From a virus (taxonomy: Duplodnaviria > Heunggongvirae > Uroviricota > Caudoviricetes), in the IMG/VR virus record IMGVR_UViG_2547132272_000021, positions 1 to 7,024 of that record: a stretch of 7,024 nucleotides of DNA; one strand, given 5' to 3'. The translations under genes were made by a program, and so were the position numbers. The notes below the pieces were generated by a model that did no database searches, had not been told where the DNA came from, and was given only the letters and a program-made list of their open reading frames with translations. Positions 1 to 6,985 of this stretch are shown here, piece by piece. The stretch's first letter is position 1. Each line of letters starts with the position of its first letter.

Positions 1-82
1 CCATACCCACGGATTACGGGTGCTGGTCACTGCCCCTTCCAGCTTAAGCTCTCCGCTGAAATCCTCTCCCGGCGTGTTCCAG
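1..82 (-). pseudogene. Distal part of a host ORF interrupted by the insertion (exported-protein-like)
   Basis: The minus-strand frame is open from 82 to the window edge (...WNTPGEDFSGELKLEGAVTSTRNPWVW) and has no start codon of its own. It joins in frame to the 6981-7024 fragment once 83-6980 and one TCCAG copy are removed. Confidence 0.6.
78..82. repeat. Target-site duplication, left copy (TCCAG)
   Basis: TCCAG lies immediately outside the TG terminus at 83. An identical 5-mer lies immediately outside the CA terminus at 6980. The match does not extend on either side. A 5-bp duplication is the Mu transposition signature. Confidence 0.85.
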
Positions 83-87
83 TGTGA

Positions 88-109
88 TGGTTCATGATAA
101 ATACGAAAA
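88..109 (+). repeat. MuA-type transposase end-binding site, L1-like
   Basis: TGGTTCATGATAAATACGAAAA matches 18 of the 19 specified positions of TGNTTCAYTNNAARYRCGAAAR. It occupies nt 6-27 from the terminus, which is where I recall Mu L1 lying (TGTAT-TGATTCAC... in Mu, TGTGA-TGGTTCAT... here). Confidence 0.85.
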
Positions 110-215
110 GAATAATCCGGGATTAGGTTAGTAAAGACGGGAATAGATTGGAGTGAAAAATCTTTTGTATCAGCAGTTTGTTAGCGCAAAGATATGTGTT
201 GGTAAAGTTATCCCT

Positions 216-237
216 TCATTTCTGTGAAACACGAAAA
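216..237 (+). repeat. MuA-type end-binding site, L2-like (weaker first half)
   Basis: TCATTTCTGTGAAACACGAAAA matches the AARYRCGAAAR half perfectly, but the TTCAY half is degenerate, giving about 14 of 19 positions. It has the same orientation as L1. Confidence 0.6.
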
Positions 238-256
238 AATGAAAGGATTACGTGAT

Positions 257-278
257 TGTTTCACTAAAGAGGCGAAAA
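257..278 (+). repeat. MuA-type end-binding site, L3-like
   Basis: TGTTTCACTAAAGAGGCGAAAA matches 17 of 19 consensus positions and has the same orientation as L1. It starts 41 bp after the L2-like site, which resembles the L2-L3 spacing I recall for Mu attL. Confidence 0.75.
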
Positions 279-393
279 GATGGTTGATTGTATAAAGTCT
301 TCAAATATGTTCAAAACCGCTTCAATACTGCATTTGAAGCTGGTTTAAGGTGGGGCATAGGTGTCTGATAACAGAATTTACTATAAACTTTGT

Positions 394-403
394 TGATGCA
401 TCA
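394..403. promoter_or_regulatory. Perfect 10-bp palindrome TGATGCATCA (candidate operator)
   Basis: The sequence is self-complementary. It shares the TGCAT core with the 476-493 palindrome and with 505-509. Confidence 0.35.
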
Positions 404-426
404 TGAATTTAAATGTTTTTATTTAA

Positions 427-439
427 AATCAATGCGTTA
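427..439 (+). promoter_or_regulatory. IHF consensus match (WATCAANNNNTTR)
   Basis: AATCAATGCGTTA fits every specified position. It is preceded by an A/T-rich tract (405-426) and lies between the two TGCAT palindromes. Confidence 0.45.
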
Positions 440-475
440 GTGAATATTACATGATACATAGGTGTAAAGTAGCGC

Positions 476-493
476 ATTGCATATCTATGCAAT
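476..493. promoter_or_regulatory. Inverted repeat ATTGCATA-tc-TATGCAAT (candidate operator)
   Basis: It has 8-bp perfect arms and a 2-bp spacer. It lies about 25 bp upstream of the candidate promoter. Confidence 0.4.
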
Positions 494-516
494 ATGTGTC
501 GGATGTGCATAAACAC

Positions 517-545
517 TTGCCAACCAATTTTATTGTTGATAACTT
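517..545 (+). promoter_or_regulatory. Candidate sigma70 promoter of the immunity operon
   Basis: TTGCCA (517-522), a 17-bp spacer and TAACTT (540-545). Alternatives are TTGATA (536-541), 16 bp, GATAAA (558-563), or the TATAAA at 545-550. The choice between them is ambiguous. Confidence 0.35.
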
Positions 546-552
546 ATAAAAG

Positions 553-571
553 CACTCGATAAAGTCGAGTG
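553..571 (+). other. Stem-loop CACTCGA-taaag-TCGAGTG at or near the predicted 5' end of the immunity transcript
   Basis: It has a 7-bp perfect stem and a 5-nt loop, with no U-tract after it. It could be a 5' stabiliser hairpin or a palindromic operator overlapping the alternative -10. Confidence 0.3.
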
Positions 572-685
572 TCGGGCGTAGGAACCCGTGTAAGCACATG
601 GCGACACAAGACGCGCCAAGCGTCTTTTTTATTGTCGTAATATCAGCGCACCTGCATTCAGTGGCTTATGGTGCACCGTATCTAT

Positions 686-761
686 GGTGGCGCTGGTGGG
701 GCAGTCGAAAGGCTGGCCGGTTTCCTTGTGCGCCGGTATTCCTACCCCCGCCAGCGTCACC
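686..761 (+). ncRNA. P1 C4 / P4 CI-type immunity antisense RNA (about 76 nt)
   Basis: A 16-bp closing stem pairs 686-701 with 746-761 (14 Watson-Crick plus 2 G.U pairs). An inner hairpin pairs 717-720 with 733-736. Its 12-nt loop (721-732, TTTCCTTGTGCG) is complementary to 805-816 across the icd-like Shine-Dalgarno sequence. The single-stranded TTCCTAC (739-745) is complementary to GTAGGAA at 775-781 and 578-584. The size and position upstream of an Icd-like gene match the P1 C4 (77 nt) and P4 CI RNAs. Confidence 0.7.
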
Positions 762-774
762 GCCCCTTATGAGT

Positions 775-816
775 GTAGGAACTCAGGCGGTGACTCCTTA
801 AATTTGCACGAGGAGG
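775..816 (+). promoter_or_regulatory. Antisense-RNA target boxes (a2-like 775-781, b2-like 805-816) covering the icd-like RBS
   Basis: TGCACGAGGAGG (805-816) pairs with the RNA loop 721-732 through 8 Watson-Crick and 4 G.U pairs, and it contains the GAGGAGG SD (810-816). GTAGGAAC is repeated at 578-585, which is the a1-like copy. Confidence 0.6.
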
Positions 817-823
817 CTGCCAA

Positions 824-1021
824 ATGGCTACGACCCCAACCACTTTACGCTCTGAATTTACCTTTCATTTTCTGGCTGTTCGCCGTTCCGATCTGAACGA
901 CCGCCCACACCGCGAATCTATTAACGCACCTGATGAAGCAACTGCCCGTCGTATGCTGGCACGTGATTTTGTGTTGGTGTTTGCTGCCTGCATCCCTGCT
1001 AAAGGGGGTAAACATGAATAA
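824..1021 (+). CDS. icd: Host cell division inhibitor Icd-like protein (65 aa)
   Basis: The motif F.FLAVRRSDL..PH....A.DEA.ARRMLARDFVLVFAA is characteristic of Icd-like proteins of P1 and P4-type elements. A strong SD (GAGGAGG) lies 7 nt upstream of the ATG. Confidence 0.8.
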   Translation: MATTPTTLRSEFTFHFLAVRRSDLNDRPHRESINAPDEATARRMLARDFVLVFAACIPAKGGKHE

Positions 1022-1418
1022 TGTTGTCAAGTTTCCGGTGCGGAATAATAAAAAAGTTGCGAAATCGAGAGAAGATATTGCTGTAAATCTGTTTAAAGAT
1101 ATTGTTGCTGCTTTATCAAAACAGGCGCGTGACTATATTAATGATGGCGTTACCGGGATCAATGGATGCCTAGATGGTAATGGCGGATATGAAACCTTTC
1201 TATCCTCTTTGTTGCTTTATATTCGTGGCATTGACTCAAAAATTGGCCTGTTTAGTATGTCTCTTGATTCAATACATCCAATACTACATGATGCATGCAA
1301 TGACTTAACGAAAGTTATTTCCCTGACGGAGCGTTTTATTGAAAGTAGAGGCGTAATCGCAGAGGCGGCAAATGGAAAACTTACAGAAGAACAAACGCGG
1401 CAGACTTTCAAAAATTGA
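1014..1418 (+). CDS. Hypothetical protein (134 aa) in the ant/eps position of the immunity operon
   Basis: The ATG at 1014 is preceded by GGGGG (1004-1008) and overlaps the icd-like stop (ATGAATAA), which suggests translational coupling. I recognise no family for this protein. Confidence 0.6.
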   Translation: MNNVVKFPVRNNKKVAKSREDIAVNLFKDIVAALSKQARDYINDGVTGINGCLDGNGGYETFLSSLLLYIRGIDSKIGLFSMSLDSIHPILHDACNDLTKVISLTERFIESRGVIAEAANGKLTEEQTRQTFKN

Positions 1419-1734
1419 ATTGCTGCCTGAAAAGATAAAAAGGAAGCTTGATAAAATGCTTATCTCACGTAAGTATTCTCAGGCTGAAATTCTAAATATC
1501 ATAGATCAGGATATAGTAATAGCAGGGTGTTCAGAACTGGTCATATCCAAAACCGGATTGAACAGATATGCGATTAGTTTAATCAATGCTGTTTCGGTAG
1601 CCAAGAAGCATGGAGAAGTGTCTCGCCGTTATAAGCATGCCGAACTACACAGGAGACTTGATAAACTTGAATCAAAGATAGACAGATTAGGGACCAGACT
1701 TGAACGAGTGTTAGAGCTTCTCGAAAAACATTAA
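1372..1734 (+). CDS. Mu gp27 / DUF3486-like small-terminase-like DNA-binding protein (120 aa)
   Basis: The N-terminus KRGRLSKIELLPEKIKRKLDKML...SQAEIL...ISKTGLNRYA fits the R.SK+D.LP.E+R..+D..L......+..EI......+S+S.L.RY pattern of Mu-like gp27 proteins, followed by a coiled-coil C-terminus. An SD (GAGG) lies 6 nt upstream of the ATG. Confidence 0.6.
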   Translation: MENLQKNKRGRLSKIELLPEKIKRKLDKMLISRKYSQAEILNIIDQDIVIAGCSELVISKTGLNRYAISLINAVSVAKKHGEVSRRYKHAELHRRLDKLESKIDRLGTRLERVLELLEKH

Positions 1735-1741
1735 CTATCCC

Positions 1742-1767
1742 AAAGCCGCCCCGTGCGGCTTTTTTAT
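1742..1767 (+). terminator. Rho-independent terminator ending the immunity/terS-like operon
   Basis: AAAGCCGC-cccgt-GCGGCTTT gives an 8-bp stem that runs into a T6 tract, 8 nt after the stop codon. Confidence 0.85.
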
Positions 1768-1935
1768 TGTTTGGCACTCGCTGTACATATCAGCGCATAT
1801 TTCATGGAAAACGGTAAATCTATCTTCCCTAAAAATCCCGAGTAATCTCACAGCATCCAGAGCAAACGGAGATGGTTCTTTTTTGAAAAAATTATGTTTT
1901 ATCACAATCGGGGATAAACTTATTTTTGATTCCCA

Positions 1936-1970
1936 TATCCGCAATAATCGTTATCGTAACATTGCGGATA
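1936..1970. promoter_or_regulatory. 10-bp perfect inverted repeat TATCCGCAAT-N15-ATTGCGGATA (candidate regulator-binding dyad)
   Basis: It sits in the 287-bp non-coding gap (1768-2054) upstream of the Mor-like genes. It is interdigitated with CGTTATC (1949-1955) / GATAACG (1967-1973), and a tandem ATCGCGC-ATCGCGC lies at 1998-2011. Confidence 0.4.
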
Positions 1971-2054
1971 ACGTTAAGTTTGCTGCAAGCATTGGCTATC
2001 GCGCATCGCGCTCAAATGTACACAGGTATATGCAAAAGCTTAAGCGAGAAGATT

Positions 2055-2783
2055 ATGGCTAAACAAACCTTTAAAAATCTCATGTTAACGCCGCCACACA
2101 ATGATATTACAGCGATAAATAAATTCATTGTTTCTTCATGCTTTTCTCGTGATATCTGTGATGTTATGTCTTATATCGGTAAAATGGGATATGCATGTAA
2201 TTATAATGAAGTCAGTGAGCATGTGAAATTGATTGAAAAACAATTCCACGCAGTAAAACATGAACAGAGAGGCGAGTGTGAAATTGATGTTTTTTGTAAT
2301 GTCGCAGGCACCGCTCTCTTTAATGAATTTATATCTGTTTGCGGGAAACAGACGTTCTATCTTGATGCAATGAAATTTGAACCGGATTTTTTTAGTGGTG
2401 GCCCGGTTAAGCATATCCGCAAAACTGCTATTATCGCTTTATTGAGAAATGAAACAAAGATTCTTCCAGAAAGTGTGACCATGATTATGGGCGCTATTGA
2501 GGCGGCATTAAAAAAAATTGGAGTAGACCCACAAGAAGAAGTAAACAGCACGACAAAAATATTCATTGCAACAAAGGCATTTCTGGAAGTTGTAGGTGGA
2601 ATTCAGTTTTATTTACCTAAGGCCGACTCACTTAGTAGAATAATGAAAAAAGCAAATATATATGCAGATAGTTATGTTATGTCTCCTGCTGAACTAGCTA
2701 TTAAATATGGGGAGTCTGGTAAATCGATATACACAACAATAAAACATGTAGGAGCGGTTATTGGTAATCATGAGCAAAGTTAA
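2055..2783 (+). CDS. Mor/C-family transcriptional activator paralog with a roughly 130-aa N-terminal extension (242 aa; start uncertain, alternatively 2016)
   Basis: The C-terminal ~110 aa (LKKIGVDPQEE...VVGGIQFYLPKADSLSRIMKKANIY...MSPAELAIKYGESGKSIYTTIKH) aligns with Mu Mor as I recall it (LSRLGVDPAHS...LGGGQVYIPRGQALDSLIRDLRIW...VSELTTRYGVTFNTVYKAIRR). Confidence 0.65.
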   Translation: MAKQTFKNLMLTPPHNDITAINKFIVSSCFSRDICDVMSYIGKMGYACNYNEVSEHVKLIEKQFHAVKHEQRGECEIDVFCNVAGTALFNEFISVCGKQTFYLDAMKFEPDFFSGGPVKHIRKTAIIALLRNETKILPESVTMIMGAIEAALKKIGVDPQEEVNSTTKIFIATKAFLEVVGGIQFYLPKADSLSRIMKKANIYADSYVMSPAELAIKYGESGKSIYTTIKHVGAVIGNHEQS

Positions 2784-3192
2784 CATAAATAATGCACACA
2801 TATTACAAACAGGTCTGAGCCTCGGTATTGATGTAATGAGAAGTAATCTTCCTGAAGAGTTAAAACTTGTAGAACGTGCAGTTATTGAATCATGTAATGA
2901 TATTGGCTTAAATCCAGAGCATGAAATTAATGGTTTATCATTTATTGGTCGGGTCATATTAAAAATAATGGAACTACAAACCGGATGTAGTTTCATACCT
3001 GAGTATGCGATTGATTCATCCAGAATTATTTTTATTTCTAAAGTTGCTGCATATGCAGAAAAATTTGGAGCAGATAAAGCAGCCAAAGCCTACTCCATTA
3101 CAGTAGATCAGGTTACGGAAATGATGAATGAAGCAAGTATGTTTGTTTCCCAATTTGATGATTTTGGTATAGACAAGGAGAAAAGCCACTGA
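2770..3192 (+). CDS. Second Mor/C-family activator paralog (140 aa)
   Basis: LPEELKLVERAVIESCNDIGLNPEHEIN parallels LPESVTMIMGAIEAALKKIGVDPQEEVN of the upstream protein. G-C-S-F-IPE corresponds to the GG.Q.YIP motif, and the C-terminal AKAYSITVDQVTEMM is HTH-like. The gene overlaps the upstream gene by 14 nt. Confidence 0.5.
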   Translation: MSKVNINNAHILQTGLSLGIDVMRSNLPEELKLVERAVIESCNDIGLNPEHEINGLSFIGRVILKIMELQTGCSFIPEYAIDSSRIIFISKVAAYAEKFGADKAAKAYSITVDQVTEMMNEASMFVSQFDDFGIDKEKSH

Positions 3193-3246
3193 AACACGCT
3201 GTGATGTTGTTTTGTCTTATCGGCGGTGTTCTGGGTGCCCTGCACC

Positions 3247-3290
3247 TTTTTGAAGGTGCTACGGTGTTTTTGAAGGGGTTTTGAAGGGGG
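3247..3290 (+). repeat. Three direct TTTTGAAGG(G) repeats in the gap upstream of the gpI-like gene (candidate activator-dependent late promoter region)
   Basis: The copies are TTTTTGAAGG at 3247-3256, TTTTTGAAGGGG at 3267-3278 and TTTTGAAGGGGG at 3279-3290, with a degenerate TTTTGCA at 3291. The first copy lies inside the hairpin GCACCTT-tttg-AAGGTGC (3242-3259). I could not find a convincing sigma70 -35/-10 pair. Confidence 0.4.
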
Positions 3291-3300
3291 TTTTGCATCC

Positions 3301-4140
3301 ATGACAGAGGAACTAATGAATATAATCGCTTTATGCACTGATTTATCGGGTGATAAGACTCCTCCGGAATGGGTTGAGTTACTGCCAGCAGGACCGGAAA
3401 TTGAAGGGCGTGACGGAAGGAGCTGGACACTTAAAGATCCACAAAGCATTAAACAGGCGTTTTCGTGTCGCGGAATGTCACTTGTGGTCGATTATGAACA
3501 CTCTACAGAAGTGATTGCACCAAAAGGTGGCGAGGCTCCTGCCGCCGGATGGATTAATGACGTTGCTGTCCGTAATGATGGTTCTGTATGGGGAAGAGTT
3601 GAATGGACTCCACGGGCAATGAATTCCATTACATCCCGTGAATACCGATACCTTTCACCAGCGTTCCGTCATTCTCAGGATGGTGAAATACTGGAACTCG
3701 TTAGCGTGGCGTTAACGAATAAACCAAATCTGAAACTTACTGCGCTGAATACTCAGCAGACACTTAGCAAAATCGCACTGGCACTTAATATGGAGGAAGT
3801 TAATTCACTTGAAGAAGTGCTGACAGCGTTAAATAAAAGACAAGCTGAACAACATAGTCAGATTGTAAATGAATATATCGAAAAAGCTGTTTTCTGTCCG
3901 GCCCAGCGGAATATTCTTCTGTCCATGTGTTCAAGTGTTGGAGAAAATGCATTCAGGAAGTTTGCTGATATGCAGGAAAAATCGACGAGTAATTTTTTAC
4001 ACTTTGCTAGGCCTGTAAGTGTAAAAGGTAAAGAACCCCCGAGAACGCTTACTGAATCGCAACTGGCTGTTTGCCGCATTACAGGTGTAAGCGAAGAAGA
4101 CTATTTGATAGCTTTAGGAAAAGAAAATGAAAGATATTAA
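3301..4140 (+). CDS. Mu gpI-like prohead protease / scaffold (279 aa)
   Basis: PEWVELLPAGPEIEGRDGRSW...DYEHS...AGWI...VEWT..A...I....YRYLSPAF... is the Mu-like prophage I protein signature. The C-terminal third is helical and charged, which is scaffold-like. Confidence 0.85.
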   Translation: MTEELMNIIALCTDLSGDKTPPEWVELLPAGPEIEGRDGRSWTLKDPQSIKQAFSCRGMSLVVDYEHSTEVIAPKGGEAPAAGWINDVAVRNDGSVWGRVEWTPRAMNSITSREYRYLSPAFRHSQDGEILELVSVALTNKPNLKLTALNTQQTLSKIALALNMEEVNSLEEVLTALNKRQAEQHSQIVNEYIEKAVFCPAQRNILLSMCSSVGENAFRKFADMQEKSTSNFLHFARPVSVKGKEPPRTLTESQLAVCRITGVSEEDYLIALGKENERY

Positions 4141-5023
4141 TTGTGTAATTGCTGATGCTACTATCGCTTTTAACGCCAAGTTTGAATCAGGAAAAAAAGC
4201 CTACAATCCTGTACATCCAACGATTGCTTCAGAAGTAACGTCTTCATCGGCAGTTAGTGCTTATGGCTTCCTCGAAGATTTCCCGGAAATCAAAGAGTGG
4301 TTAAACGACCGACAGTTAAAATCACTGTCAACCCGTGATTATTTTCTGAAAAATAAAACGTTTGAAAGCAGCATTCAAATTAAACGTGAGGATTTTGAAG
4401 ATAATGATTATGGTAAGTATTCAATGGTTTTTGAACAGTACGGGCGCAAAGCGGCTGCATTCCCTGATAAGTTACTGTTTGAAGCTATGAAGAAAGGGCA
4501 CTTATCAGAAGGAATTGATGGGCATAACTTCTTTGCTACTGACCATCCTAATGGTGAAGGCGTTTATTCAAACCTCTATGGAAGCAATCCAGCAAAAAAT
4601 GCAGATGCAACGCCGTTATGGTACTTATTTGATGGTAGTCAGGGATTGAAACCTTTTATTTATCAGGTTCGTCGTCCAATGGCTGTAACTTCTGTTACTG
4701 ATTCCGGCGCTACCGATGTGTTTCTGAATAATCGTTTTCTGTTTGGTGTTGATGGGCGTCTTAATGTTGGATATGCAATGTGGCAATGCGCAGCGGCATC
4801 ATGGGATACGCTGAATGAAACCACATTTAATGAAGTGTACGACGGGATGTTATCCGTTAAGGGAAGTAGCGGTGAACCATTGGGAATCGTGCCTACTGTT
4901 ATTGTAGTCCCCGTATCGTTAAGAGCCGCAGCGGAAAAATTGCTGTTACGTCAGTATCTGGATAACGGGGAAGACAATCCAAATTATAAACGCGTGGAAA
5001 TTATTGTTTCACCATTTATTTGA
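4127..5023 (+). CDS. Mu gpT-like major capsid protein (298 aa)
   Basis: It is colinear with Mu T as I recall it, over segments such as YGFLEDFPEIKEWLNDRQ, FESSIQIKREDFEDN, DGHNFFATDHP, LKPFIYQ, NVGYAMWQ, VVPVSLR and NGEDNPNY. An AGGA SD lies 7 nt upstream, and the gene overlaps the gpI-like gene by 14 nt. Confidence 0.9.
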   Translation: MKDINCVIADATIAFNAKFESGKKAYNPVHPTIASEVTSSSAVSAYGFLEDFPEIKEWLNDRQLKSLSTRDYFLKNKTFESSIQIKREDFEDNDYGKYSMVFEQYGRKAAAFPDKLLFEAMKKGHLSEGIDGHNFFATDHPNGEGVYSNLYGSNPAKNADATPLWYLFDGSQGLKPFIYQVRRPMAVTSVTDSGATDVFLNNRFLFGVDGRLNVGYAMWQCAAASWDTLNETTFNEVYDGMLSVKGSSGEPLGIVPTVIVVPVSLRAAAEKLLLRQYLDNGEDNPNYKRVEIIVSPFI

Positions 5024-5029
5024 TAATTC

Positions 5030-5054
5030 GGAGGGGATTTCCCCTCCTGTTTTT
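5030..5054 (+). terminator. Rho-independent terminator/attenuator directly after the capsid gene
   Basis: GGAGGGG-attt-CCCCTCC gives a 7-bp GC-rich stem followed by TGTTTTT, 6 nt after the capsid stop codon. Confidence 0.75.
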
Positions 5055-5066
5055 ATGGGGAATATA

Positions 5067-6854
5067 ATGAGTAATAAGTTAAGCACGGAAATACTGATAA
5101 ATCTTACGGGAAATCTTACCGCTAAAGCACGACAGTACGGCGCAAATATGTCGCAGTTCGCCCGTAACCATCAGAAGGCAATGCGACTGGTCAAGGCCAC
5201 AACTGAATCCGCCACGCGTGGCCTTGATATGCTGGGTAATCGTTACACAGCGATGATTGCAGGTTTTGCAGGTAGCGCCATGATGCGTGAGTTTGCACAG
5301 GTTGATCGCCGGATGACCCGTATTGGTATTGCCGCAGAAAAGACGCGCGACGAAATGGCACAGATGCTGAATGGTATTCAGGACACCGCCATCAAATTTA
5401 AGGTTGATGACAGTGAACTGATAAGCGCGGTGGAAAAAGTTGGCACAATAACAGGCGAGATTGAGTTTGGCATCAAGAATAAGGATGTTATGGCGGCCTC
5501 CATCGCGGCTTCAGGAAGTGAAGGCGAGTTCATTGGCTCGCTGTTTTCCCTGTTTACGAAGTTTGGCATTAAGAATGAAGACGACTCACTGAAGGCCATG
5601 GACACCCTGAACCTGCTGGGGAAGGAAGGTGCCTATGAATTGAAAGACTTTGCAGAAAAATCCACCCGCGGGATGTCGCTGTATGCCGCTGCAGGTGGAC
5701 GGGGCGTAAAGGGTGTCAAGGAGTTTGGTGTTGTAATGGAATCTGCTGTGGATGCCACCGGGAACCGTGATACAGCAGCCACAACGGTGGAAAATTTCAT
5801 AAAAGATTTGCAGAACCCGAAAGTCGTCAAAACGCTTAAGCATAATGGCATTAACGTATTCGATAGCGAAGGCCATATGCGTTCACTGCCCGTTCTTCTT
5901 CAGGAGATTGCCACCCGCTCGGGAAGCAAAGGCTCGGAAATACAATCCAAACGACTGGATGAAGCCGGATTTCTTGATGACGCAAAAATGTTAATCAAAT
6001 CGGTAACGTCCGGTAAAGGCGCAGAAAACCTGCAACGCTATATGAAAGTCGTCGGTGATGGAAAAGGCATCATGAAGGATGCCGCATATGCCGCACAGGA
6101 CTTTACGTCTTCCATGCAGGCGCTGGAAACCAGCTGGAAAAAATTCTCTCATAACCAACTGGCAAAACCTGTTCAGGAACTGGCTGATGCCATTAACAGT
6201 GTCGACCAGAACACTGTCCAGAACTGGCTACAGGTTGCCAAATACATGGCGATTGCTGTGGGCGGCATTATCGCCGTGCGTAAGACGTACAAGCTCGGTA
6301 AAACCATCCACGACATCATGAATCCCAAAGAGAAAGGCAAAGGGATACCCGGCAGTATTACGGATGTTTTCGGTTCTGGCGTGATGCCAGTGTATGTGGT
6401 CAATATGGGCAGCGGTGGGATGAATGGTAATACCAGTGGTTTGCCGGATGCGCCGGATTCATCACGCAATCCCCGTGGACCAAAGACGCCAACACTGGTT
6501 ACACCACAAACGGTATCAGGATTTAATCTCCTTGACATGGCGCTATCTGCTTTCCCCAAAAATAAAGAGGAAGCTGACGCGTTAATCGCACGGGTTCAGG
6601 AAAACAACAACCGCCCGACGGTATGGACGGATATTAAGAACTGGTTTAACTCTCTGGAGAAAAAGAACATCGCCGCTCCATCTCCGTGGGATGTCCTGCA
6701 ATCCACACAGAACGCGCCATTCGTACCACAGCAATTGCAGGGAGAAATCCGTGTGGTGGTGGAAGGTGATGCACGCGTGAAAAGCGTCAGAGTGGATCAA
6801 CCTGGCGTCAGACTTAGTGCTCAGGCAGGGGTTACCAGTGTAGAACAAAGTTAA
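5067..6854 (+). CDS. Tail tape-measure-like protein (TP901/PhageMin_Tail-type core; 595 aa)
   Basis: The central region (FAQVDRRMTRIGIAAEKTRDEM...AASIAASGSEGEFIGSLFSLFTKFGI...NLLGKEGAYELKDFA...GINVFDSEGHMRSLPVLLQEIA) looks like tape-measure core repeats. The C-terminal part has a hydrophobic segment (YMAIAVGGIIAV) and a Gly-rich stretch. I chose the ATG at 5067 because GGGGA lies 6 nt upstream, whereas the TTG at 5004 would overlap the capsid gene and the terminator. Confidence 0.7.
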   Translation: MSNKLSTEILINLTGNLTAKARQYGANMSQFARNHQKAMRLVKATTESATRGLDMLGNRYTAMIAGFAGSAMMREFAQVDRRMTRIGIAAEKTRDEMAQMLNGIQDTAIKFKVDDSELISAVEKVGTITGEIEFGIKNKDVMAASIAASGSEGEFIGSLFSLFTKFGIKNEDDSLKAMDTLNLLGKEGAYELKDFAEKSTRGMSLYAAAGGRGVKGVKEFGVVMESAVDATGNRDTAATTVENFIKDLQNPKVVKTLKHNGINVFDSEGHMRSLPVLLQEIATRSGSKGSEIQSKRLDEAGFLDDAKMLIKSVTSGKGAENLQRYMKVVGDGKGIMKDAAYAAQDFTSSMQALETSWKKFSHNQLAKPVQELADAINSVDQNTVQNWLQVAKYMAIAVGGIIAVRKTYKLGKTIHDIMNPKEKGKGIPGSITDVFGSGVMPVYVVNMGSGGMNGNTSGLPDAPDSSRNPRGPKTPTLVTPQTVSGFNLLDMALSAFPKNKEEADALIARVQENNNRPTVWTDIKNWFNSLEKKNIAAPSPWDVLQSTQNAPFVPQQLQGEIRVVVEGDARVKSVRVDQPGVRLSAQAGVTSVEQS

Positions 6855-6856
6855 AT

Positions 6857-6887
6857 ATATGCTGTATATCACAAAATAGCAGCATAT
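6857..6887. repeat. Inverted repeat ATATGCTG-N15-CAGCATAT after the last gene, containing a possible degenerate third MuA-type site
   Basis: It has 8-bp perfect arms. The loop and right arm (6865-6886, TATATCACAAAATAGCAGCATA) share TCACAAAA with the R1/R2-like sites but match only about 10 of 19 consensus positions. The orientation is opposite to R1/R2. Confidence 0.25.
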
Positions 6888-6931
6888 TAATTCAATGCGT
6901 CCGATTTTTTATTCGGTGGTGTTTTGTTTTT

Positions 6932-6953
6932 TTTTCGCGCTTTTTGTGAGATG
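6932..6953 (-). repeat. MuA-type end-binding site, R2-like
   Basis: The minus strand reads CATCTCACAAAAAGCGCGAAAA, about 15 of 19 consensus positions. It directly abuts the R1-like site in the same orientation. The two 22-mers are 20/22 identical. Confidence 0.75.
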
Positions 6954-6975
6954 CTTTCGCGCTTTTTGTGAAACG
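6954..6975 (-). repeat. MuA-type end-binding site, R1-like
   Basis: The minus strand reads CGTTTCACAAAAAGCGCGAAAG, 17 of 19 consensus positions. It occupies nt 6-27 from the CA terminus, exactly mirroring the L1-like site at the other end. Confidence 0.85.
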
Positions 6976-6980
6976 CCTCA

Positions 6981-6985
6981 TCCAG
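6981..6985. repeat. Target-site duplication, right copy (TCCAG)
   Basis: It is identical to 78-82 and directly abuts the CA-3' terminus. Confidence 0.85.

Follow-up and report, generated by a model that had tools for sequence, protein, structure and literature searches.

The window analysed here, a stretch of 7,024 nucleotides, contains a complete transposable element that is probably a natural mini-Mu without a transposase and a member of a conserved family of approximately 6.5- to 6.9-kb Mu-type phage satellites. The element occupies positions 83–6980 (approximately 6.9 kb), begins with TG at 83–84, ends with CA at 6979–6980, and interrupts faeI, where it is flanked by a perfect 5-bp target site duplication (TSD). 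Between its ends lie two P4-type immunity RNAs (isrK and C4) and nine credible open reading frames (ORFs), which encode an Icd-like protein, a 134-aa protein, two gp27 N-terminal-like proteins, MorL, orf140, gpI, gpT, and a tape-measure protein (Table 1). An earlier sequence-only reading had recognized the termini and the duplication correctly and had counted eight ORFs; the ninth is a conserved 59-aa ORF. Its Mu-like assignments are backed by Pfam and PHROG profiles for gp27N, Mor, gpI, gpT, and the tape-measure protein, as is the Icd-like protein by two PHROG families. No gene for a transposase, MuB, integrase, TerL, portal, tail, or lysis function was found within the element. This absence, also claimed previously, extends to the minus strand because the ORFs there have no significant family match, the sole match (PF22965) falling under its cutoff.

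Table 1. Features of the element and its borders (window coordinates).
Feature	Position	Strand	Evidence or remark
Left TSD copy, TCCAG	78..82	.	In faeI; uninterrupted faeI has a single TCCAG
Left terminus (TG) and L1-type MuA-binding 22-mer (88–109, TGGTTCATGATAAATACGAAAA)	83..109	+	PWM 21.5 bits; degenerate pattern
ATAATCCGGGATTAG motif, common to the Mu left end (ATTATTCGGGAT...GGGATTAG)	112..126	+	Candidate pac or host-factor site
L2-like weak MuA-type site	216..237	+	PWM 15.2 bits
L3-like MuA-type site (TGTTTCACTAAAGAGGCGAAAA)	257..278	+	PWM 21.0 bits; degenerate pattern
Sigma-70-like promoter (TTGATA-18-TAAAGT) before RNA/immunity operon	536..565	+	Consensus match only
isrK-family RNA, seqA / a1-b1 target-type leader with own terminator	552..630	+	Rfam RF01394, 59.4 bits (gathering threshold 50), E = 3.8e-11
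C4 / P4-CI-type antisense immunity RNA	680..767	+	Rfam RF01695, full-length, 77.1 bits (gathering threshold 45), E = 2.7e-14
Icd-like protein, 65 aa	824..1021	+	phrog_6928 E = 1.5e-16; phrog_1743 E = 1.7e-14
orf134, 134 aa	1014..1418	+	Start overlaps icd stop (coupled translation)
gp27N, gp27 N-terminal-like protein, 120 aa	1372..1734	+	PF11985 E = 1.9e-9 (residues 15–83 on profile positions 1–64 of 173); phrog_426 'terminase small subunit' E = 9e-14
Intrinsic terminator, end of first operon	1742..1772	+	8-bp stem, then T run
orf59, second gp27 N-terminal-like HTH mini-protein, 59 aa	1883..2062	+	Conserved across family; weak phrog_15000 match
MorL, 242 aa: C-terminal Mor/C-family activator domain and 130-aa N-terminal extension	2055..2783	+	PF08765 E = 3.6e-8 (residues 138–241); phrog_532 'late transcriptional activator' E = 1e-12
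orf140, distant Mor-domain paralog	2770..3192	+	hhalign vs MorL alignment: probability 85%, E = 6e-6, onto MorL 138–234
51-bp block with three TTTTGAAGGnG repeats, immediately before gene I	3244..3294	+	
gpI-like head protease/scaffold, 279 aa	3301..4140	+	PF10123 E = 8e-49; phrog_328 E = 1.8e-62; RefSeq start 3316
gpT-like major head protein, 298 aa	4127..5023	+	PF10124 E = 6e-89; phrog_371 E = 2e-93
GC-rich hairpin and T run, between gpT and tape-measure genes	5030..5057	+	
Full-length tail tape-measure protein (TMP), 595 aa	5067..6854	+	phrog_973 E = 2e-106; PF10145
R2-type MuA-binding site	6932..6953	-	PWM 17.7 bits; degenerate pattern, 0 mismatches
R1-type MuA-binding site (6954–6975) and right terminus (CA 6979–6980)	6954..6980	-	PWM 21.0 bits; degenerate pattern, 0 mismatches
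Right TSD copy, TCCAG	6981..6985	.	Perfect 5-bp duplication with 78–82

The element has Mu-type ends without a transposase, and it has inserted many times, with 5-bp duplications, at targets that Mu prefers. A degenerate MuA-site pattern (TYWCAYNNWAARNRCGAAAR, up to two mismatches allowed) matches at 90–109 (+), 259–278 (+), 6932–6951 (-), and 6954–6973 (-), compared with 0.14 matches expected by chance, and none of 200 shuffles gave four or more. A position weight matrix (PWM) derived from the six sites in the ends of an actual resident Mu prophage identifies these sites and one more, the weakest of which still exceeds the 95th percentile of the shuffle maxima (14.6 bits; mean 11.0); genuine Mu sites score 3.4–19.9 in a leave-one-out PWM. 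All five 22-mers face inward, the terminal ones occupy nucleotides 6–27 from either end, and further copies lie inside, as had been read from the sequence. Their arrangement is the L1...L2-L3 / R1-R2 layout of Mu, with the same R1-R2 spacing, and 20 of the first 28 nucleotides of the Mu left end are identical in the element. Neither an R3-type site nor a counterpart of the Mu transpositional enhancer/operator region was found in the element. In Mu, pac lies inside the left ~30–60 bp; the ATAATCCGGGATTAG motif, a candidate for such a site or for a host-factor site, is shared by the Yersinia and L014 elements and is partly present in the left end of a Salmonella element (L038). Because the ends of the element and of the resident Mu share only ~70% identity, it is an assumption that this Mu's own MuA recognizes the element.

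Mobility is evident from the distribution of copies. In addition to the window copy, 15 complete near-identical copies of the E. coli-type core are present in E. coli and Salmonella, and these 16 copies occupy 16 different sites, each with its own perfect 5-bp TSD, rather than a single att-type site. Copies differing by only 0–11 nucleotides over 6.9 kb are found at different loci, and a single clone has used five insertion sites. The Mu target preference NYSRN fits 12 of the first 15 duplications (binomial p = 4.6e-9 vs 1/8) and 13 of 18 once two Salmonella copies and one Yersinia copy are added. Where the element is absent, the flanks are joined by a single TCCAG in uninterrupted faeI, with 121/121 nucleotides aligned in one piece at 99.2% identity; this empty site is present in 135 genomes. 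Independent insertions and such an empty site had both been anticipated in the sequence-only reading.

Among 5,426 complete E. coli genomes, the set in which helpers were counted, nine carry the element, eight as a full copy and one as a copy truncated by IS1, and the element occurs only alongside a Mu-type prophage. Mu c-ner-A DNA is present in all eight full-copy carriers versus 88 of the 5,426 genomes overall (Fisher p = 3e-15, uncorrected for relatedness), and in the ninth carrier the evidence for a helper is a Mu-type tape-measure/gpN/baseplate region. This co-occurrence represents approximately three independent lineages, namely, the RIVM-type clone, UMNF18, and STEC388. The Mu prophage of the carrier clone is complete (33.7 kb), with A, B, and the full set of virion genes, and the PWM from the resident Mu detects the element's ends, in agreement with the earlier proposal that carriers harbor a Mu-like phage with matching ends. 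Mobilization by a helper transposase is thus well supported by the empty site, the 16 duplicated sites, the profile matches, and the co-occurring Mu, and the proposal of a natural mini-Mu that obtains its transposase from a helper gains support from the same evidence.

Autonomous movement, in which orf134, the N-terminal half of MorL, or orf140 would be an unrecognized transposase or recombinase, is the least probable alternative. Three proteins or domains do lack an assigned fold or function. However, the sites at the ends are Mu-type when scored with a PWM from real Mu, the length of the duplications and the choice of targets match MuA/MuB, and Mu accompanies the element in the complete genomes. 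Moreover, the unassigned proteins are helical, 134–140 aa long, and without any DDE- or recombinase-like match, and Yersinia-type members, which lack orf134, still show a TSD.

The immunity RNAs precede the genes of the first operon. The isrK RNA includes a terminator hairpin (608–626) and is overlapped by a weak c4-a1b1 match (539–592); a RefSeq 'ash family protein' ORF overlaps the C4 RNA. The isrK and C4 profiles pick up relatives of P4 seqA and CI (PMC10111431). The same RNA pair is found in P4 and in gram-negative PICIs. The next gene is named in RefSeq as encoding a 'host cell division inhibitor Icd-like protein', and it is followed by orf134, at a place where P1 has an antirepressor. 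orf134 matches no Pfam, PHROG, or PADLOC family, its homologs are confined to this element in E. coli, Salmonella, and Shigella, and its AlphaFold model is helical and poor (pLDDT 53). It is also the fastest-evolving gene of the element (dN 0.129, dN/dS 0.49). The last gene encodes gp27N, which corresponds to the DNA-binding N-terminal part of the small-terminase-like Mu gp27 (193 aa; residues 1–70 are 45–46% identical) and has a coiled coil in place of the C-terminal part. The gp27-like assignment made earlier is therefore upheld for the N-terminal part. orf59 is 51–62% conserved in every family member, and its homolog in member L012 is 26% identical to gp27N residues 10–66.

Of the two Mor/C-like proteins previously proposed, MorL stands by its PF08765 match, with homologs at 39–43% identity in all relatives. 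The second, orf140 (48–56% conserved in relatives), has no Pfam match and is instead distantly paralogous to the MorL Mor domain. The 51-bp block that follows is 88% identical to a counterpart in the resident Mu prophage, which has the equivalent position upstream of gene I there. The block is unique in both sequences and is a candidate helper-responsive late control or leader element.

Among the structural proteins, gpI is 33% identical to Mu gpI, and ~42 aa of its scaffold part are missing, by the same deletion, in all four diverged satellites. Satellite gpT sequences are 72–75% identical to one another, whereas identity falls to only 43% with either Mu type and does not exceed 44% with any INPHARED phage. 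The capsid gene makes up a separate clade. TMP, in contrast, follows an allele of a helper: across its full length it shares 87.6% identity with the 603-aa TMP from the Mu-type prophage of ETEC1732, compared with 47% for the TMP encoded by the RIVM clone's resident Mu.

Diverged relatives, which come from Yersinia enterocolitica as well as from metagenomes and IMG/VR contigs, keep the gene order at 39–75% protein identity, and the ends of one IMG/VR contig coincide exactly with both element termini. Copies from E. coli and Salmonella share 97% identity, indicating recent transfer between genera, and one Salmonella copy is 94.8% identical inside with both end modules swapped for another specificity. 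Mu-family homologs exist for all structural genes, and gp27, Mor, I, T, and TMP follow the order of Mu, as would be expected of a decaying Mu-like prophage from which deletion removed most of the genome, both ends surviving by chance; reductive origin is, in addition, the standard model for hitcher elements (PMC11389934). Decay is nevertheless largely refuted and very improbable. No pseudogenes were found, ORFs are intact in all variants checked, and dN/dS is 0.1–0.2 (0.11–0.18 across gp27N, MorL, orf140, gpI, gpT, and TMP; MorL 0.16, gpI 0.18, TMP 0.13). Furthermore, the reduced gene set is kept in several genera, near-identical copies have inserted recently and often, gpT is far closer among elements than to that of any phage, and the element contains modules that Mu lacks (isrK/C4/icd, orf134, and the MorL extension). 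The element probably did arise by reduction in the distant past, but what exists now is a maintained lineage.

Packaging is the step at which a further alternative, unlikely though not negligible, has to be weighed: a non-autonomous Mu transposon, that is, a gene-carrying MITE that MuA moves from place to place in a replicon and from one replicon to another and that is never packaged as a unit. Its head, scaffold, TMP, and terminase-like proteins would be dominant-negative decoys that sabotage Mu assembly, and the element would serve as an anti-Mu interference or defense cassette or be a hitcher spreading on plasmids. Mobilization by a Mu-type transposase is the sole step that the data show, and both the gp27-like proteins, which lack the gp27 C-terminal part, and the head protein, which shares only 43% identity with the helper's, are as compatible with poisoning as with hijacking. 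Interference with helpers is common among known satellites. Moreover, 116 of 139 faeI-site matches are on plasmids, so plasmids could explain cell-to-cell spread of the window copy. Complete genomes contain one element copy each, unlike the outcome of replicative transposition in a surviving cell; new sites therefore need transfer or non-replicative insertion, which would occur in Mu lysogens, where MuA is normally repressed. However, no PADLOC defense family matches the element, and a pure decoy has no need for a conserved pair of matched proteins, head and protease/scaffold, that purifying selection maintains across genera, for a Mu-like left-end motif outside the transposase sites, or for a size held at 6.5–6.9 kb in all subfamilies. 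Nor are the two roles exclusive, as P4, SaPIs, and PLE both interfere and are packaged. The satellite reading is favored by the hallmarks that the element displays, including the isrK/C4 pair, small-terminase-like DNA-binding proteins, the ~42-aa gpI deletion, and its own capsid clade; packaging and capsid remodeling are inferences.

As a satellite, the element would remain quiescent while the P4-type RNA pair holds the first operon (icd, orf134, and gp27N) shut. When a resident or co-infecting Mu goes lytic, MuA and MuB would assemble on L1/L2/L3 and R1/R2 and amplify the element by replicative transposition, as they do engineered mini-Mu. The gpI-gpT-TMP operon may be switched on by helper late regulators and the element's Mor-like pair, wiring to the helper being suggested because the control block is copied from the region upstream of Mu gene I. 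The two gp27 N-terminal-like proteins and the Mu-like left-end motif would steer the helper terminase to the element, and its diverged gpT and shortened protease/scaffold would probably make small-genome heads on the helper's portal; a head protein so diverged must fit that portal and the connectors. TerL, portal, connectors, sheath, tube, baseplate, fibers, and lysis functions would come from the helper, and in a new cell helper MuA would insert the element DNA, generating a new 5-bp duplication.

The literature searched contains no description of such an element or of a transposition-based satellite, in line with the earlier statement that no described satellite was known to be mobilized by replicative transposition. 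The element therefore appears to be the first natural phage satellite to move on its helper's transposase rather than on an integrase.

The element at window 83-6980 begins with TG at 83-84, ends with CA at 6979-6980 and is flanked on both sides by TCCAG. When the flanks are fused via a single TCCAG (121 nt), they read as intact faeI, which encodes the F4/K88 fimbrial minor subunit, in an unbroken match at 99.2% identity; this uninterrupted site is found in 135 E. coli genomes, where it is mostly plasmid-borne. The window therefore shows an insertion with a true 5-bp target duplication. The entire window is also contained exactly in the JGI metagenome contig Ga0209547_100208.

The ends of the element carry sites resembling those bound by the Mu transposase. 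A degenerate MuA-site pattern matches the element four times, compared with 0.14 matches expected by chance, and all four lie in the ends and point inward. With a PWM derived from the six end sites of the real Mu prophage resident in a carrier clone, five sites were scored at 15.2-21.5 bits (88-109, 216-237, 257-278, 6932-6953 and 6954-6975). The shuffle maxima for this PWM have a mean of 11.0 and a 95th percentile of 14.6 bits, and genuine Mu sites score 3.4-19.9 bits in a leave-one-out test. The layout is Mu-like: one site is located at nt 6-27 of each end, the second right-end site abuts the first, and a left-end pair lies 130-200 nt inward, as in Mu. These sites are termed L1, L2-like and L3-like on the left, and R1 and R2 on the right. 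The sequence-only reading had described the TG/CA termini, the perfect 5-bp duplication and the MuA-type 22-mers at nt 6-27 of both termini with further copies inside, and had named the joined flanks as a check; each of these points held. A third right-end site of the R3 type was sought in the element with the PWM and was not found. Likewise, for the internal transpositional enhancer (operator region) that Mu has about 1 kb from its left end, blastn (word size 7) of the c-ner intergenic region of the resident Mu against the element gave no similarity, although a diverged enhancer may be present. Outside the transposase sites, the left end has ATAATCCGGGATTAG in common with the Mu left end (ATTATTCGGGAT...GGGATTAG), and the same motif is found in Yersinia-type elements. 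The packaging site of Mu lies within this part of its left end, and the motif is a lead toward a Mu-type packaging site in the element.

The element has moved to many places. Fifteen further complete copies with the E. coli-type core, from E. coli and Salmonella, likewise have TG...CA termini, and with the window these make 16 copies at 16 different sites. A perfect 5-bp duplication of its own accompanies every copy (16/16), which is what had been proposed as the test of independent insertion. Besides TCCAG in the window, the E. coli duplications are GCCAG, GCGCC, ATGGA, ATGTG, CAGGC, ATCGA, GTCGG, CCCAC, GTGGG, GTGAC, GTGAA and TCCAC, the last in two copies at different loci; those in Salmonella are ATCAG and GTGTG. 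A Yersinia member has ACTAC, and the left junction of a truncated copy in strain STEC388 reads CTGAA. Mu prefers targets of the form N-Y-(G/C)-R-N. This form fits 12 of the first 15 duplications (chance 1/8, p = 4.6e-9) and 13 of 18 once two Salmonella copies and one Yersinia copy are added. The insertion reaction thus has the duplication length and the target preference of Mu. Six different loci in unrelated assemblies are occupied by copies that lie 0-11 nt apart across 6.9 kb. Within a single clone, comprising RIVM and related clinical isolates, copies 1-6 nt apart are found at five loci (puuC, ddpC, the lyxose-isomerase region, yddA and a site near acuR). The E. coli and Salmonella copies are 97% identical. 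The element is a Mu-type substrate that carries no transposase and has been inserted repeatedly and recently.

A full copy is present in eight of 5,426 complete E. coli genomes and an IS1-cut copy in one more (STEC388), and the copy number per complete genome is one. The exact window gpT protein occurs in 240 blocks of a public assembly collection, with ten places among the matches listed; in 55 of the 240, the element forms a separate 5-10-kb contig. Homologs of orf134 are found in two Salmonella enterica element copies and in Shigella boydii records. Megablast of the element gave no match among INPHARED phages and only a tape-measure fragment among PLSDB plasmids. One copy (L023:4957-11853, duplication GTGAC) lies within another prophage-like region and is flanked by SLT-domain and NUDIX genes. 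The STEC388 copy (L003:10984-16083) is cut by IS1 just past the hairpin downstream of gpT; beyond the IS1, at tRNA-Pro, is an island of the integrase type that carries an Icd-like gene of its own along with an AlpA-type regulator and DUF4222, a conventional P4-/PICI-like satellite adjoining the Mu-type one. UMNF18 and STEC388 are porcine carriers, and the ETEC strains with the closest tape-measure allele are also porcine. The porcine origin of several carriers, together with insertion in the K88 fimbrial gene faeI, points to a pig-associated reservoir.

Between its ends, the element encodes two RNAs and nine proteins, all on one strand (see table). The profiles for isrK and C4 pick up RNAs related to seqA and CI of the P4 immunity system, and also match Gram-negative PICIs (PMC10111431). 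Terminator-like hairpins at 1742-1762 and 5030-5047 close the first operon and follow gpT, respectively. The tape measure is full-length, given its 595 residues and the 603-618 aa of the tape measures read in Mu prophages.

RNAs and genes of the element (window coordinates) and related elements read at other loci
Feature	Coordinates	Strand	Description
isrK RNA	552-630	+	Above Rfam curated threshold
C4 RNA	680-767	+	Above Rfam curated threshold
icd	824-1021	+	Icd-like protein
orf134	1014-1418	+	Protein without assignment, translationally coupled to icd
gp27N	1372-1734	+	First ~70 residues of Mu small-terminase-like gp27 fused to a coiled coil
orf59	1883-2062	+	Second gp27 N-terminal-like protein
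MorL	2055-2783	+	Mor/C domain plus 130-aa extension
orf140	2770-3192	+	Distant Mor-domain paralog (hhalign E = 6e-6)
gpI	3301-4140	+	Head protease/scaffold
gpT	4127-5023	+	Major head protein
TMP	5067-6854	+	595-aa tape measure
Yersinia enterocolitica relative	L010 8520-14994		6,475 bp, TG...CA, ACTAC, between dctQ and dctP
L014 relative			IMG/VR contig, 6,691 bp; starts one base before TG, stops on CA
L027 relative	L027:183-7024		L027-type, same gene order
L028 relative	L028:1718-8532		L027-type, same gene order
L033 relative	L033:3333-10147		L027-type, same gene order
L034 relative	L034, about 362-7174		L027-type, same gene order
L012 relative			Short contig

The Mu-like assignments made from sequence alone stand, and the count of eight ORFs given with them does not, orf59 being the ninth. 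The absence of MuA/MuB, integrase, TerL, portal and lysis genes was upheld: family searches of both strands found no transposase, MuB, AAA ATPase, integrase, TerL, portal, tail or lysis protein, the tape measure excepted, and no significant family match for the minus-strand ORFs. The only virion genes are gpI, gpT and TMP; the complete set, with TerL, portal, connectors, sheath, tube, baseplate, fibres and endolysin, is not present. In a PADLOC search of the element, no defence family was found, the sole match being a chance Cas1 (E = 0.004). The fast-evolving orf134 occupies the position of the P1 antirepressor, and by this analogy its product could act on the helper repressor; its AlphaFold model, from a six-sequence alignment, has a pLDDT of 53, too poor for a fold search. 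RefSeq annotates the genes of the element singly and names the C4 region an 'ash family protein' (PF10554). The ORF so named lies over the C4 gene (window 642-896; L001:4560-4814 in another locus), and window ORF 684-896 matches Phage_ASH with E = 3e-15. Here, 'ash family' is probably the translation of a conserved RNA gene and not a real protein.

The genes of the element are under purifying constraint that a cryptic or decaying prophage would not be expected to keep. Between the window and a 95%-identical variant, dN/dS is 0.11 for orf140, 0.12 for gp27N, 0.13 for TMP, 0.16 for both MorL and gpT, 0.18 for gpI, and 0.49 for orf134 (dN 0.129), and there are zero broken ORFs in any variant. Diverged relatives share the order isrK, C4, small ORFs, orf59, MorL, orf140, gpI, gpT and TMP. 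Compared with the window proteins, they are 72-75% identical in gpT, 55-56% in gpI, 52-59% in TMP, 48-56% in orf140, 51-62% in orf59 and 39-43% in MorL, whose context order is kept even at about 40% identity. Copies of a cryptic prophage would be fixed at one location with idiosyncratic genes; the 16 sites, the order kept across genera, the intact ORFs and dN/dS values of 0.1-0.2 (0.49 for orf134) speak strongly against this. The element is a lineage, not debris.

The capsid gene of this lineage stands apart from those of phages. Satellite gpT is 43% identical to its counterparts in both E. coli Mu types and no more than 44% identical to that of any INPHARED phage, in contrast to 72-75% among satellites, which indicates an old, separate clade. 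In addition, the same ~42 residues of the scaffold part of Mu gpI are missing from all four diverged gpI proteins. A profile search of genome contigs with the MorL alignment gave no match, and a second one, with the gpT alignment of the satellites, turned up nothing but a true Mu-like prophage in Vibrio, the family being absent from the GTDB species-representative genomes. A metagenome contig (L031:6212-12901) has the same element as L014 at 100% identity with differing flanks, CCTAC and ACGAT. This mismatch reflects either several sites in the sample combined with a chimeric assembly, or a rearrangement associated with transposition.

While the cargo is conserved, the ends are not always the same. 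In Salmonella enterica GCA_013591785.1, a copy of 6,877 bp (L038:8098-14974, duplication GTGTG) is 94.8% identical to window 571-6855. Its terminal segments (~488 bp left and ~125 bp right) are unrelated DNA with the repeated motif ATGTGAACAAAAA and with termini TGTAG...CTACA. The ends of this copy had no phage match in INPHARED, and blastn of the left-end regions of both the E. coli element and the Salmonella copy against phages gave no match. The Yersinia and L014 type has ATGAGAAA/ATGAAAAA where the E. coli type has CGAAAA. The L027-type subfamily has TTTGATAC end repeats, and flanking repeats of 4 bp in all four insertions (GATT, TCCA, AACA and GGTA). In this subfamily, a Mu-right-like terminus starting TAT(A/T)GCGCACGAAAAA adjoins icd and a Mu-left-like terminus with CCGGGATTA is located after the tape measure, so that the cargo is inverted relative to the ends. 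Replacement of both ends in concert around the same cargo is expected if the ends must match the transposase of the available helper. A further candidate for an other-end variant, L013/L026 (IMG/VR 2778261544_000011), was rejected as a damaged copy with IS2 between gp27N and orf59 and a contig break. Most of its orf140 is deleted, and its differing left region has four TTATTCAAGATAA repeats followed by GATTAGTAAAGACGGGAATAG, a match to window 120-146; this region may be yet another end type.

Two regions of the element bear on its interplay with Mu-type phages. In every E. coli and Salmonella variant, TMP is 87-90% identical over its full length to the tape measure of a Mu-type prophage of porcine ETEC1732, compared with 47% to that of the RIVM resident Mu and 56-59% to those of other satellites. 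Judged by these sequences, the gene is evidently exchanged with Mu-type phages, the opposite of the behaviour of the capsid gene. The TMP alleles of E. coli Mu-type prophages differ greatly (window 5067-6854 versus L025:19980-21791 in the ETEC1732 prophage and L004:18924-20780 in the RIVM prophage); the RIVM type is ~47% identical to the element TMP or its near-allele, with nucleotide patches of 80-88% at the N-terminus, middle and C-terminus. The ETEC1732-type allele was full-length in the resident Mu of none of nine carrier genomes (65-71% query coverage). There is a low probability that an allele unlike that of the resident helper lets satellite particles enter lysogens. The second region, directly upstream of gene I, is a 51-bp block with three TTTTGAAGGnG repeats that is 88% identical to the Mu block in the same position and unique in both sequences. 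In Mu, a C-dependent late promoter, P_I, lies ahead of gene I (PMC2582627). The block is a candidate helper-responsive control site.

A potential helper is present in the carriers. The RIVM clone has a complete 33,689-bp Mu-type prophage of 53 genes between yehR and yehQ, with a 5-bp ACGAG duplication and TG...CA ends nearly identical to those of Mu. Its genes include c repressor, ner, transposase, MuB-type ATPase, gam, mor, lysis, gp27, TerL, portal, F, I, T, sheath, tube, tape measure, gpN, baseplate, fibres and com/mom. The c-ner-A DNA of this prophage occurs in 88 of the 5,426 genomes, among them all eight with the complete element, and every complete genome with the element also has a Mu-type prophage; in STEC388, with its truncated copy, the Mu-type tape-measure/gpN/baseplate region is present. 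Co-occurrence with a Mu-like prophage had been anticipated. The Fisher test (p = 3e-15) ignores relatedness, and because only about three independent lineages are involved, the association fits helper dependence but does not prove it. Sister isolates of the RIVM clone have the same prophage at the same site and are free of the element, which indicates that the prophage is older than the element insertions in that clone. The prophage of RIVM_C019217 (L005:4926 to L004:30152, 33.7 kb) appears intact and is present in at least 17 clinical isolates from several countries. The ETEC1732 prophage (L025), also intact-looking and of Mu type, lies within flhA of porcine ETEC, an insertion expected to abolish motility.

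A helper Mu can act in trans to transpose, amplify and package laboratory mini-Mu, whose insertions carry 5-bp duplications. By the same route, MuA and MuB of a resident or co-infecting helper would assemble on the ends of the element, which would be amplified during lytic growth of the helper and inserted after entry into a new cell. Mobilisation in trans by a Mu-type transposase is very likely. In the resting state, the isrK/C4 pair would silence the icd-orf134-gp27N operon, as CI does in P4, and helper late activators together with the element's own Mor-like pair would activate gpI-gpT-TMP. The gp27 N-terminal-like proteins, along with the left-end motif, would steer the helper terminase to the element, while its head protein and short scaffold would build heads fitted to a genome about one fifth the size of the helper's. 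A full satellite life cycle that includes packaging is probable; indirect evidence for packaging and transfer comes from the 97% identity of the E. coli and Salmonella copies, the near-identical copies at many sites and the IMG/VR contig L014, which stops at both termini. The Mu head is filled by a headful of ~39 kb and has T = 7; if capacity scales with T^1.5, a T = 3 shell would hold ~11 kb, a figure that is arithmetic, not measured, and small capsids are a tentative and somewhat doubtful proposal. Single copies per genome, with insertions in Mu lysogens where A is repressed, are a difficulty for this scheme, since they call for transfer and some source of MuA, or for rare nonreplicative moves. 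The negative enhancer search is a further difficulty. Plasmids could also carry the element between cells, as the window copy sits in a usually plasmid-borne gene.

Genes for an autonomous lytic cycle are missing from the element and helper-interacting modules are kept, which is the general definition of a satellite. Among known systems, engineered mini-Mu/Mud elements, which retain only the ends, are alike in their Mu-type ends, the lack of A/B and the L1...L2-L3 plus R1-R2 layout. However, the element is natural, widespread and conserved across genera, and it adds a head protein, a protease/scaffold, a tape measure, terminase-like binders, Mor-like activators and RNA immunity. With Mu itself, the element shares terminal dinucleotides, site consensus and layout, the 5-bp duplication, NYSRN targets, the 51-bp gene-I block, and homologs of gp27, Mor/C, I, T and the tape measure in the same order. 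Its ends are only ~70% identical to those of Mu, and it has no recognisable enhancer or R3 site. Also missing are c, ner, A, B, gam, lysis, TerL, portal, F, neck, sheath, tube, baseplate, fibres and com/mom. Mu-type genomes measure 33.7-37 kb and use a c repressor, whereas the element measures 6.9 kb and has P4-type RNA immunity.

P4-like satellites resemble the element in their seqA/CI-type RNA immunity and in a virion that would depend on the helper; use of the helper's late-gene control and redirection of capsid size are presumed for both. P4 has an integrase, the alpha primase/helicase, cos and Sid/Psu/Delta, none of which has a family match in the element. P4 reshapes the helper capsid protein with an external scaffold, whereas the element brings its own capsid protein and would integrate and replicate by borrowed transposition. 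SaPIs and PLE (CpmA/B, TcaP) use a satellite scaffold unlike that of the helper, to which the ~42-aa shorter scaffold part of gpI is the analogue; these satellites work on the helper capsid protein and excise by integrase, while any size redirection by the element is putative. The cf-PICIs are alike in having their own major capsid protein and head protease, with capsid clades apart from those of helpers (PMC11389934). They have an integrase and a replicon, make the entire head and packaging set themselves (portal, connectors, TerS and HNH) and borrow only tails from the helper, whereas the element lacks integrase, portal, TerL, connectors and HNH and carries a tape measure. Beyond satellites, the element is a nonautonomous transposon in the MITE sense. 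MITEs likewise lack a transposase, and their ends are served by one from another element, the helper being in the same cell (PMC11389934); they are ~300 nt, noncoding and cell-bound, in contrast to a 6.9-kb element with nine selected genes and a viral helper.

Full-text literature searches found no description of a Mu-dependent or transposition-based satellite, in agreement with the claim that no satellite mobilised by transposition had been described; neither Mu nor satellites based on a transposase appear in the SatelliteFinder survey or in a 2024 review of helper-dependent elements. We regard the element as a phage satellite that moves on a principle so far undescribed among natural satellites. 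To our knowledge, surveys and tools now in use find all their satellite families (P4-like, PICI, cf-PICI, PLE and PICMI) via integrases and att sites, and an element of this kind is therefore invisible to those tools. On balance, we lean slightly toward viewing it as the founding example of a satellite class that has no integrase or replicon, uses the helper transposase for integration, amplification and reinsertion, and brings its own capsid shell, shortened scaffold and tape measure. Members of such a class would switch helpers by concerted swaps of end modules, with the same cargo between ends of different specificity and one subfamily inverted.

The landing of the element inactivates host genes, those interrupted in the present data being faeI, puuC, ddpC, ycaN and yejO. 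Were it packaged by the headful mechanism from a Mu-type pac site, neighbouring host DNA would be taken along, which would make the element a transducing agent. The element also raises the question of what purpose a tape measure serves in a satellite, and it offers a natural system for studying this role, the setting of capsid size in Mu-like phages and the choice of MuA between competing sets of ends. If our reading holds, use of the helper transposition machinery would give satellites a third mode of parasitism on viruses, and it would link nonautonomous transposons with phage satellites, which are treated separately in reviews.
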